Sequence record: MF158041
DNA: 64,000 nucleotides
Strand: one strand, 5' to 3'
Origin: Shigella phage Sf15
Below the pieces are notes generated by a model. That model worked only from the letters and a program-made list of their open reading frames with translations, ran no database searches and had not been told where the DNA came from. A program made the translations under genes and the position numbers. Shown here one piece after another: positions 50,892 to 52,141 of this stretch. Numbering within the stretch: position 1 is the stretch's first letter; the number at the start of each line of letters is the position of its first letter.

Positions 50892-51260
50892 ATGAAGGCA
50901 AAGAGTGGAAAAGACTTTTATTGCTTCCTACAATCTTATGTCCAAAGTGTTCAAGAAGGTGACAGGTATAATCTTGATGATGTACTTCCGACACCCTTAA
51001 CATGGCGTGATAGCAAATGGCCTGAAAAGGATATCAACCCTACCGAAACATATTTCGAATACACACCTAAAATTCCTCTACCAGATACTGAAGAACTTCT
51101 TTACCCAATGTTTCATATCGTTGGTCTTGGTACATTTTTGATGGATATTCAATATGTGATGGGTAAAGGCTATAAGATTGACGGAGTTGTTGTAGGTGAT
51201 GTTTCACCGCAGCACAAAGGTTATTTTAGACTAAATGCAAGATTAGAGGCTAAGAAATGA
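50892..51260 (+). CDS. hypothetical protein, paralog of N-terminal domain of next gene
   Basis: 122 aa; shared motifs PWPE.DI, EELLY, FMDIQY, LNAKL with 51257-52141. Confidence 0.5.
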   Translation: MKAKSGKDFYCFLQSYVQSVQEGDRYNLDDVLPTPLTWRDSKWPEKDINPTETYFEYTPKIPLPDTEELLYPMFHIVGLGTFLMDIQYVMGKGYKIDGVVVGDVSPQHKGYFRLNARLEAKK

Positions 51261-52141
51261 TTAAAGCAAAGACATATCCAGATTTTAAAGAGTTCGTTAA
51301 AGACTTTGTAGCGAATGTTAAAGCTGGCAAAAGATACGACTTCAGAAAGTATCAAGAGGCCGTTCTGCCTCTGACATATAGCTCACCGTGGCCTGAGTCT
51401 GATATTCCAGAAGTTACTGACTTCAATTACACACCAGACTACACAGTTCCATTTAGTGAAGAACTTTTATATTCAGTTGGTGCTCAGATGAGGACTGCTG
51501 ACTTCTTCATGGACTTGCAGTATGCAATCATCAATGGGAAGGATGTTGACACAGTTTATTGTGAATGGTTGGCAAGGGTTAAACCTTTCTCCATGCTTAA
51601 TGCAAAGTTGAAGGATGCAATCACACCTCCAGTTATTACACAGCAGCCAACTGACCAAACTGTTAACGAGGGTGGAACACTTACACTTTCAGTTGTTGCT
51701 ACTGGTGCAACTGGTTATCAGTGGAAGAAAGGTGCATCAAACATCTCTGGAGCAACCTCTGCAACATATACTAAGAATGGCGTAGTCCCTACTGATGCTG
51801 GCGCATACACCTGTGTAGTTTCTGGTGAAGGTGGCTCAAGTGTTAATTCCAACGCTGCCACAGTAACTGTGAATGCACTGCCTGTGATTACACAGCAACC
51901 TACTAACCAAGAGATTACAGAGGGAGATACACTCACCCTTAGCATCGTAGCCACTGGTGCAACTGGTTATCAGTGGAAGAAAGATGATGTAGATATCCCT
52001 TCAGCAACATCTGCAACATATGAAAAGACACCGACTTCTAAAGCTGATGATGAAGGTACTTACTCTTGTGTTGTAACTGGTGTAGGTGGCTCAATCACAT
52101 CCCAATCTGCCAAGGTGGTTATTAACGCAGTAGGAGGTTGA
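51257..52141 (+). CDS. protein with two tandem Ig-like domains
   Basis: two repeats PVITQQPT.Q...G.TLTLS.VATGATGYQWKK...Y.CVV.G.GGS typical of Ig-like domains. Confidence 0.55.
   Translation: MIKAKTYPDFKEFVKDFVANVKAGKRYDFRKYQEAVLPLTYSSPWPESDIPEVTDFNYTPDYTVPFSEELLYSVGAQMRTADFFMDLQYAIINGKDVDTVYCEWLARVKPFSMLNAKLKDAITPPVITQQPTDQTVNEGGTLTLSVVATGATGYQWKKGASNISGATSATYTKNGVVPTDAGAYTCVVSGEGGSSVNSNAATVTVNALPVITQQPTNQEITEGDTLTLSIVATGATGYQWKKDDVDIPSATSATYEKTPTSKADDEGTYSCVVTGVGGSITSQSAKVVINAVGG

Follow-up and report, generated by a model that had tools for sequence, protein, structure and literature searches.

Hex-Dec, named gp20 in phage Sf14, is a capsid decoration protein of the Ounavirinae that has been described by cryo-electron microscopy (cryo-EM) of Sf14 and Bas63. 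In the T=9 head it is a monomer, and its N-terminal domain of about 118 amino acids (aa) occupies the centre of those hexamers that are pentamer-proximal (quasi-three-fold) (PMC11821841; PMC12609058). In Sf14, salt bridges join Arg79 and Arg107 of gp20 to the major capsid protein at Asp221 (PMC11821841); the immunoglobulin (Ig)-like domains, which number one to four among relatives, are flexible and not resolved by cryo-EM (PMC11821841; PMC12609058). Both structural papers describe a functional likeness to T4 Hoc, with the domain order reversed and an unrelated anchor, and propose a Hoc-like role in adhesion or sensing; in both phages the decoration gene lies more than 10 kb from the structural module (PMC11821841; PMC12609058). 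Here we analyse the corresponding locus of Shigella phage Sf15 (sequence record MF158041) within a stretch of 64,000 nucleotides (nt), hereafter the window. The locus comprises two adjoining open reading frames (ORFs), ORF-A and, downstream of it, ORF-B (Table 1). It is very probably an accessory capsid-decoration cassette of a Felix O1-like myophage (Mooglevirus), with ORF-B as Hex-Dec, ORF-A as a derived copy of it, and an Ig module reshaped by recombination.

ORF-B closely matches the described proteins. Residues 1–119 are identical to those of Sf14 gp20 (PDB 9c2d_S; phmmer expect value (E) 4.6e-185), the match to Bas63 Hex-Dec (9ncf_S) reaches E 9.9e-258, and both anchoring residues can be read from the sequence, in QMR79T and LAR107VKP. 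As in gp20 and Hex-Dec, a capsid-binding domain (CapBD) at the N-terminus is followed by I-set Ig repeats and the gene stands immediately 5′ of the endolysin gene, outside the structural module; ORF-B has two Ig domains, whereas Sf14 gp20 has three and Bas63 Hex-Dec four. The Ig region gives two stretches each of the Pfam families Ig_3 (E 1.5e-19), Ig_2 (9.2e-15) and I-set (9.4e-14). Judged by its sequence, ORF-B is the ortholog of Ounavirinae Hex-Dec and Sf14 gp20, whose capsid location has been shown for orthologs: gp20 was found in Sf14 particles by mass spectrometry (PMC11821841), Felix O1 gp36 was found in virions by the same method (31.6 kDa, 44% coverage), and the CapBD is seen in the cryo-EM structures 9C2D and 9NCF.

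An earlier reading of this DNA, made without database searches (the sequence-only reading), had anticipated much of this. It placed a 122-aa and a 294-aa gene exactly where we find them, gave the second two Ig-like domains (84 aa each by our analysis), expected the protein on virions with a part in surface or mucus adhesion, and remarked on its place beside the endolysin and away from the structural module; all of these points agree with the searches above and with the two structural papers. Novelty is not supported. Most of the locus finding, namely the identity of ORF-B, its position outside the structural module and the variable number of Ig domains, is already published: the separation from the structural module was noted in print for Bas63 (PMC12609058) and Felix O1, and two Ig-like domains are ascribed to Sf13 and Sf17 in the Sf14 paper (PMC11821841). 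The sequenced region is 99.5% identical to that of Shigella phage Sf17 (Mooglevirus, Ounavirinae).

The likeness of ORF-B to T4 Hoc covers a monomer at the hexamer centre, a string of Ig domains standing off the head, an acidic surface, dispensability and a proposed role in adhesion or environmental sensing. However, the capsid-binding domain is C-terminal in Hoc and N-terminal in ORF-B, no sequence similarity is detectable between the two domains, which are topologically distinct according to the Bas63 authors (PMC12609058), and T4 has no anchor-only paralog. With neither a homologous domain nor the Hoc order, ORF-B is Hoc-like in function and not a member of the Hoc family. The decoration protein pb10 of phage T5 (PDB 5LXK, 8ZVI) has a single Ig domain, which matches ORF-B at E 1e-9, an unrelated capsid-binding domain and no known tandem paralog.

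ORF-A, directly upstream, is a previously undescribed paralog that consists of the CapBD alone, a new but modest finding. Its product aligns with residues 2–119 of ORF-B at 38% identity over 123 columns (BLASTP E 4e-18; E 3e-16 by tblastn within the window), each protein matches the PHROG family of the other (ORF-A against phrog_3995, E 3.1e-15; ORF-B against phrog_4463), and the only PDB chains that ORF-A recovers by phmmer are the CapBD chains 9c2d_S (1.5e-13) and 9ncf_S (2.5e-11). The motifs WPExDI and FxMDxQY are invariant in both paralogs, and the segment YPMFHIVGLG-FLMDIQYV is nearly invariant across the sampled ORF-A orthologs; ORF-A has no Pfam family. The paralogy asserted by the sequence-only reading is thereby demonstrated at the level of sequence. 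An AlphaFold2 model of ORF-A, computed from a 34-sequence alignment and used only for a Foldseek search, has the same two chains as its top PDB matches (probability 1.00 and 0.99, template-modelling score (TM) 0.54, root-mean-square deviation about 6 Å); at its low confidence (mean predicted local distance difference test score 57), the model may suggest the fold of the solved CapBD. The Sf14 authors judged the AlphaFold model of the CapBD unreliable (PMC11821841). Neither structural paper makes any relevant mention of ORF-A, gp21, a paralog or a duplication (PMC11821841; PMC12609058), and a literature search found no description of decoration-protein paralogs.

Few proteins belong to the CapBD family: an exhaustive profile search over 1.84 billion representative proteins yielded only 12 clusters. 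Word-indexed protein searches reached close relatives only, and the exhaustive search was needed for the outgroups. Within the Ounavirinae, tblastn with ORF-A marks 488 places in 252 phage records. An intact ORF-A of 122–124 aa lies beside Hex-Dec in about 230 of these, and in about 20 the CapBD of Hex-Dec is the only match. The Sf14 protein is identical to ORF-A and the Bas63 ortholog is intact. A divergent 87-kb metagenomic phage contig keeps the gene order 195 aa, 122 aa, 298 aa and lysozyme, with an ORF-A ortholog that is 48% identical. For protein P0098, a search of the IMG/VR viral contigs returned no match, and its contig came from a separate encoding-contig search.

The ratio of non-synonymous to synonymous substitution (dN/dS) is 0.05–0.23 for ORF-A, at dS up to about 1.5, and 0.03–0.12 for the CapBD of Hex-Dec; these ranges leave out the near-identical Felix O1–ESCO49 pair (dS 0.09, ratio 0.51). 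By these ratios ORF-A is under purifying selection, and its dN is higher than that of the CapBD: it is constrained and evolves faster. In Felix O1, reverse transcription PCR placed ORF36 (Hex-Dec) and ORF37 (the ORF-A ortholog) in the late class with the morphogenesis genes, and the neighbouring ORFs 35 and 38 in the middle class, which peaks earlier. ORF-A is dispensable. In REP7 and Z31 it is reduced to a pseudogene remnant that has lost its start codon and carries frameshifts and a deletion of about 225 nt, and in a genome-wide CRISPRi-ART screen of SUSP1 both agp126 (ORF-A) and agp125 (Hex-Dec) scored 'Not Fit' (PMC11879866). Known false negatives of that screen, in which even the endolysin is 'Not Fit', count against relying on its scores (PMC11879866). 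ORF-B is likewise non-essential in the laboratory.

Some records show further damage to this region. In Z31 (L004, 2306–3070) Hex-Dec is also disrupted: an internal stop and an out-of-frame deletion that falls between the Ig repeats interrupt it, and the record lists two coding sequences in its place. Loss of the entire decoration cassette from this phage may explain this, as may sequencing errors in the record. In vB_SflM_004 (L003) and Salmonella phage ST11 (L006), Hex-Dec and several neighbours are split into small coding sequences, which looks more like frameshift sequencing errors than biology.

Outgroup Ounavirinae bear on the direction of the duplication. They have only one CapBD gene, in the corresponding place, and its product has a C-terminal extension: Kolesnikvirus M7 (gp009, then gp008, then the endolysin), Pectobacterium phage Arno162 (orf66, then orf65, then orf64) and two metagenomic loci, L020 and L022. 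Of the five outgroup CapBDs, P0100–P0102 are 35–38% identical to the CapBD of ORF-B and 25–29% identical to ORF-A; P0103 and P0104 stand about as far from the one as from the other. The C-terminal partners of the CapBD vary by lineage, from one to four I-set Ig domains to Ig domains of the bacterial Big_2 type (Kolesnikvirus and Erwinia phages) and a Lys/Ser-rich low-complexity tail (P0103), so that the anchor is conserved and the displayed part interchangeable. Because the single-copy outgroups already have the extension and three of their five CapBDs are nearer to ORF-B, the parsimonious reading suggests that the ancestor was an anchor with a display domain and that ORF-A is a derived, truncated and faster-evolving copy. 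On the metagenomic contig that encodes P0102 (L018), a 141-aa ORF at 1739–2164, starting MLKAKQYDSFEEL…, lies directly 5′ of the distant CapBD-Ig gene and resembles the CapBD over its N-terminal 35 aa or so only. The similarity is weak (hhalign probability 18%, BLASTP E 0.05) and was not used; the ORF could be an independent or very old anchor-only paralog.

The two Ig units of ORF-B are old and diverged, and only a 31-nt island is identical between them. The units share 54% identity in protein and 61% in ungapped DNA (blastn, 71.5% over 214 nt, E 2e-24), and Tandem Repeats Finder calls no 252-nt repeat in 50800–52300 because the units are too diverged. The DNA-level tandem repeat of the sequence-only reading survives in this sense only, as an exact island within diverged units. 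The 25-mer it had pointed to does occur exactly twice, 252 nt apart, with none expected by chance, at 51707–51731 and 51959–51983; the positions it gave were off by 11 nt for the first copy and by 1 nt for the second, and the exact match extends to the 31 nt of Table 1. In the window, the two repeats agree in all ten codons of the island; elsewhere, at conserved residues, they agree in 14 of 25.

Relatives with fewer or more Ig domains bear on how the copy number changes. Henu11 gp59 and SFPB_113 have a single Ig domain (210 aa) and correspond to ORF-B minus exactly 252 bp, in frame. Between about nt 316 of ORF-B and the stop codon, the sequence flanking the deletion on either side matches the window fully in SFPB and at all but one base in Henu11, whereas the first 315 nt of the gene are only about 88% identical. 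The deletion junction, GTTGTT followed by GCCACTGG, lies at the 5′ edge of the 31-nt repeat. When every Ig domain was split at YQWKK and the halves were matched separately, three half-domain chimeras emerged: Henu11 Ig1 (N-half equal to window Ig1, 100%; C-half to window Ig2, 98%), REP7 Ig1 (N-half to CL1 Ig1, 88%; C-half to CL1 Ig2, 92%) and Felix O1 Ig2 (N-half to CL1 Ig2, 85%; C-half to CL1 Ig3, 94%). The deletion junctions are associated with the repeat, and this association together with the three chimeras argues that unequal recombination at the conserved ATGATGYQWKK-coding segment is a recurrent route of Ig copy-number change. Two details limit this account: the 31-nt island is specific to Mooglevirus, the exact match at this place in Felixounavirus being 11–13 nt, and the Henu11 junction lies 3 nt outside the exact 31-mer (GCC vs GCT), so that the crossover would have used 2 nt of microhomology or else an ancestral repeat slightly longer than the present one.

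Across genera the first and last Ig domains are orthologous and the internal ones come and go. The module also appears to move as a whole. Compared with Sf14 (L002), DNA identity is 98.6% for ORF-A, 95.3% for the CapBD and 99.1% for the endolysin, but about 62% for the Ig region; on these comparisons, the whole Ig module is swapped between lineages, with mosaic breakpoints at the CapBD/Ig boundary relative to both Sf14 and Henu11 (L007). Variation of tandem Ig copy number by unequal recombination is familiar from bacterial surface adhesins and from phage Ig-like domains. The present case resembles those in the in-frame gain and loss of whole units and in crossovers that leave hybrid domains; it differs in that the crossover repeatedly falls at one conserved motif (GYQWKK) inside the domain and not at domain boundaries, and in that recombination acts on repeats just 61–71% identical in DNA. 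Both structural papers called the origin of Ig-number variation unclear, and the mechanism is a new, modest addition.

Other accounts of the two genes can be weighed against these data. GenBank, RefSeq and PHROGs label ORF-B a tail protein, as does its own family, phrog_3995, and it matches the 'major tail protein' families phrog_158, 853 and 3575. These matches cover residues 96–208, in the Ig region only, with no homology to a tail tube or major tail core, just as the 'Hoc-like' PHROG matches are confined to residues 119–288; the label arose because of Ig-domain similarity only, and in two cryo-EM studies the identical CapBD is located at the centre of capsid hexamers (PMC11821841; PMC12609058), which leaves a tail role with practically no chance of being right. 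We give equally little credence to a CapBD-CapBD-Ig fusion made by programmed ribosomal frameshifting, as in tail-chaperone genes. Although the two genes share the 4 nt ATGA and ORF-B is read in frame −1 with respect to ORF-A, the sequence GCT-AAG-AAA-TGA holds no slippery heptamer of the form X_XXY_YYZ, the start of ORF-B lies at +2 in the window and in L015 and at +1 in SUSP2, with overlaps of 1–8 nt, and the 31.6-kDa mass of Felix O1 gp36 fits ORF-B alone; lacking a slippery site and a frame relation conserved among relatives, this candidate was rejected. The sequence-only reading itself described a tandem duplication whose second copy has gained two Ig-like domains encoded by a DNA-level tandem repeat, a scenario that would start from a short ancestral gene and make the repeat recent. 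The arrangement of a short gene upstream of a long one, the tandem Ig units with their common exact 31-mer and the lineage-specific C-terminal modules all fit such a history, and the varied modules do mean that display domains were gained or exchanged at some point. Yet every single-copy outgroup already has an extension, P0100–P0102 are nearer to ORF-B, it is ORF-A that has the higher dN, the divergence of the units is too great for a recent repeat, and the two-Ig state is common to Mooglevirus, Suspvirus, Felix O1 and the divergent locus L015; gain after duplication is therefore quite unlikely, and a derived ORF-A is the reading we retain.

The remaining alternatives concern what this derived copy does. 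ORF-A might be an overlooked second capsid decoration, bound to the 20 true three-fold hexamers that lack Hex-Dec, or present sub-stoichiometrically or loosely and so lost or averaged out in the published preparations. A full-length CapBD homolog with the invariant motifs of both paralogs, transcribed late with Hex-Dec, joined to ORF-B by a stop/start overlap and kept by purifying selection would suit that role; P0103 and P0104, distant putative decoration proteins, also lack an equivalent of Arg79, and if they do decorate capsids, this loss would not exclude capsid binding. Several observations weigh against any placement of ORF-A on the capsid. Both anchoring arginines are replaced: the equivalent of Arg79 is Gly (HIVGLGTF) in every sequence of the ORF-A family, and that of Arg107 is Gln in ORF-A and Arg, His or Lys in a few orthologs. 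The 3.1–3.2 Å capsid maps of Sf14 and Bas63, which both encode an intact ORF-A, have no density reported on the 20 free hexamers (PMC11821841; PMC12609058); the other hexamers of Bas63 carry none despite its intact gene (PMC12609058), and only gp20 and gp33 are visible as decorations in the Sf14 maps (PMC11821841). The 17 proteins of the Felix O1 virion proteome do not include gp37, although proteins of 9.7–13 kDa were detected, and the text describing the VpaE1 virion proteome, whose protein list is given as a figure, mentions no ORF-A ortholog, which was apparently not detected. A second decoration is accordingly unlikely. That ORF-A is instead a functionless remnant in slow decay would explain its pseudogenes in REP7 and Z31, the records in which only the Hex-Dec CapBD is found, the 'Not Fit' score of the SUSP1 ortholog and its lack of a Pfam family and of a known function. 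An ORF kept intact in about 230 records, including an ortholog only 48% identical, with low dN/dS at such dS and a nearly invariant segment, is hard to square with decay, which we regard as very improbable.

On the reading that we prefer, the 60 pentamer-proximal hexamers of the T=9 head would hold one ORF-B monomer each, its helical N-terminal CapBD of 120 aa inserted at the centre and fixed by Arg79 and Arg107 to Asp221 of the major capsid protein, and its two I-set Ig-like domains projecting outward. The Ig string would probably work as in T4 Hoc, by weak adhesion to surfaces, mucus or cells, or by particle aggregation. All Ounavirinae would share one gene for a CapBD and display domain, flanked on one side by a conserved gene of about 190 aa and on the other by the endolysin, and a tandem duplication would have occurred in the common ancestor of Felixounavirus, Mooglevirus and Suspvirus. 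The downstream copy would have kept the ancestral role while its Ig module expanded, contracted and was swapped by recombination, unequal crossovers at the ATGATGYQWKK-coding segment leaving hybrid Ig domains. The upstream copy, ORF-A, would lack a display domain, have changed about twice as quickly and retain neither anchoring arginine, all under continued purifying selection. Our tentative guess is that, while heads are assembled, ORF-A continues to work on or close to capsid hexamers or Hex-Dec, in an accessory part; as one option, it might serve transiently as a cap or chaperone and be absent from the mature particle. More specifically, ORF-A could be an 'anchor-only' antagonist or partner that transiently occupies procapsid hexamer centres, the 20 Hex-Dec-free three-fold hexamers or Hex-Dec itself, and so sets the site and number of Ig fibres. 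We hold this to be rather unlikely; if true, it would constitute a regulatory layer for capsid decoration, undescribed for any phage.

About 230 Felix O1-like phage records match the region; the second matching place given for each record is presumably the self-match of Ig1 and Ig2. The cassette is bounded by two terminator-like hairpins, and the Felix O1 paper lists an equivalent of the upstream one between ORF38 and ORF37. No sigma-70-like promoter was found between the upstream terminator and ORF-A, and tblastn detects no further CapBD or Ig copies elsewhere in the window.

Table 1. Features of the ORF-A/ORF-B locus of phage Sf15, in window coordinates.
Feature	Coordinates	Strand	Remarks	Orthologs
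Terminator-like hairpin, intrinsic type	50856..50879	+	GGGGCGAAAGCCCC then T-run; ends upstream 196-aa gene; 13 nt 5′ of ORF-A	
ORF-A, 122 aa, 14.2 kDa, isoelectric point (pI) 5.6	50892..51260	+	Paralog of Hex-Dec CapBD, without Ig domains; phrog_4463 (unknown function)	Sf14 FDI99_gp021, Felix O1 ORF37, Bas63 bas63_0125, SUSP1 agp126
ORF-B, 294 aa, 31.5 kDa, pI 4.6	51257..52141	+	Hoc-like hexamer-centre capsid decoration protein (by orthology); phrog_3995	Sf14 gp20, Bas63 Hex-Dec, Felix O1 gp36
CapBD of ORF-B, aa 1–120	51257..51616	+	Contains Arg79 and Arg107	
Ig-like domain 1, aa 125–208	51629..51880	+	'First' type	Ig1 of Felix O1, CL1 and Bas63
31-nt island, copy 1	51701..51731	+	ACTGGTGCAACTGGTTATCAGTGGAAGAAAG; codes TGATGYQWKK; Henu11/SFPB 252-bp deletion junction at its 5′ edge	
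Ig-like domain 2, aa 209–292	51881..52132	+	'Terminal' type	Last Ig of 3- and 4-Ig relatives
31-nt island, copy 2	51953..51983	+	Exact; 252 nt 3′ of copy 1	
Endolysin, glycoside hydrolase family 24	52144..52608	+	Phage_lysozyme, Pfam E 4.8e-39; third gene of the terminator-bounded cassette	
Terminator-like hairpin, intrinsic type	52615..52648	+	Ends the ORF-A/ORF-B/endolysin cassette	

Upstream of the cassette, a 196-aa protein (50258–50848, + strand; phrog_4034, unknown function) is encoded directly 5′ of the one or two CapBD genes in all the Ounavirinae lineages examined, single-copy outgroups included. Its family has a C-terminal sequence, …F(D/N)(M/L/I)…(V/A)..(F/Y)G(F/I).L(D/N)…, that is conserved by eye in translations; the ortholog in L020 has a faint match to Pfam Phage_Inh_N, and the window protein has no Pfam match. 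In T4, inh adjoins hoc. Just upstream of the locus, 26 tRNA genes are arrayed on the − strand at 42945–47611, as is typical for Felix O1-like phages; the tRNA set of Sf14 has reportedly been analysed in a 2025 paper. Beside the array, also on the − strand, lie genes for a 123-aa DUF5681 protein (49269–49640) and a 471-aa DUF2828/vWFA protein (47777–49192) that is annotated as 'RNA-binding protein'. The syntenic counterpart of the 123-aa gene in SUSP1, AVU07_agp130, is 'Fit' in the CRISPRi-ART screen (score 2.43, p 0.008), marking this gene as important.

Overall, the sequence-only reading made a correct observation of a largely known feature, to which the anchor-only paralog and the recombination junctions are modest additions. 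In most of about 250 genomes the genes concerned still carry the label 'tail protein' or 'hypothetical protein', and the anchor-only paralog adjoins the decoration gene in Sf14, Bas63 and Felix O1 without being discussed in the structural papers. As the same domain without its two anchoring arginines, ORF-A offers a natural handle on what makes the CapBD specific for certain hexamers. Because therapy cocktails and capsid display both draw on phages of this group, there is some practical use in knowing which part of the decoration protein is the anchor and which part can be exchanged freely.

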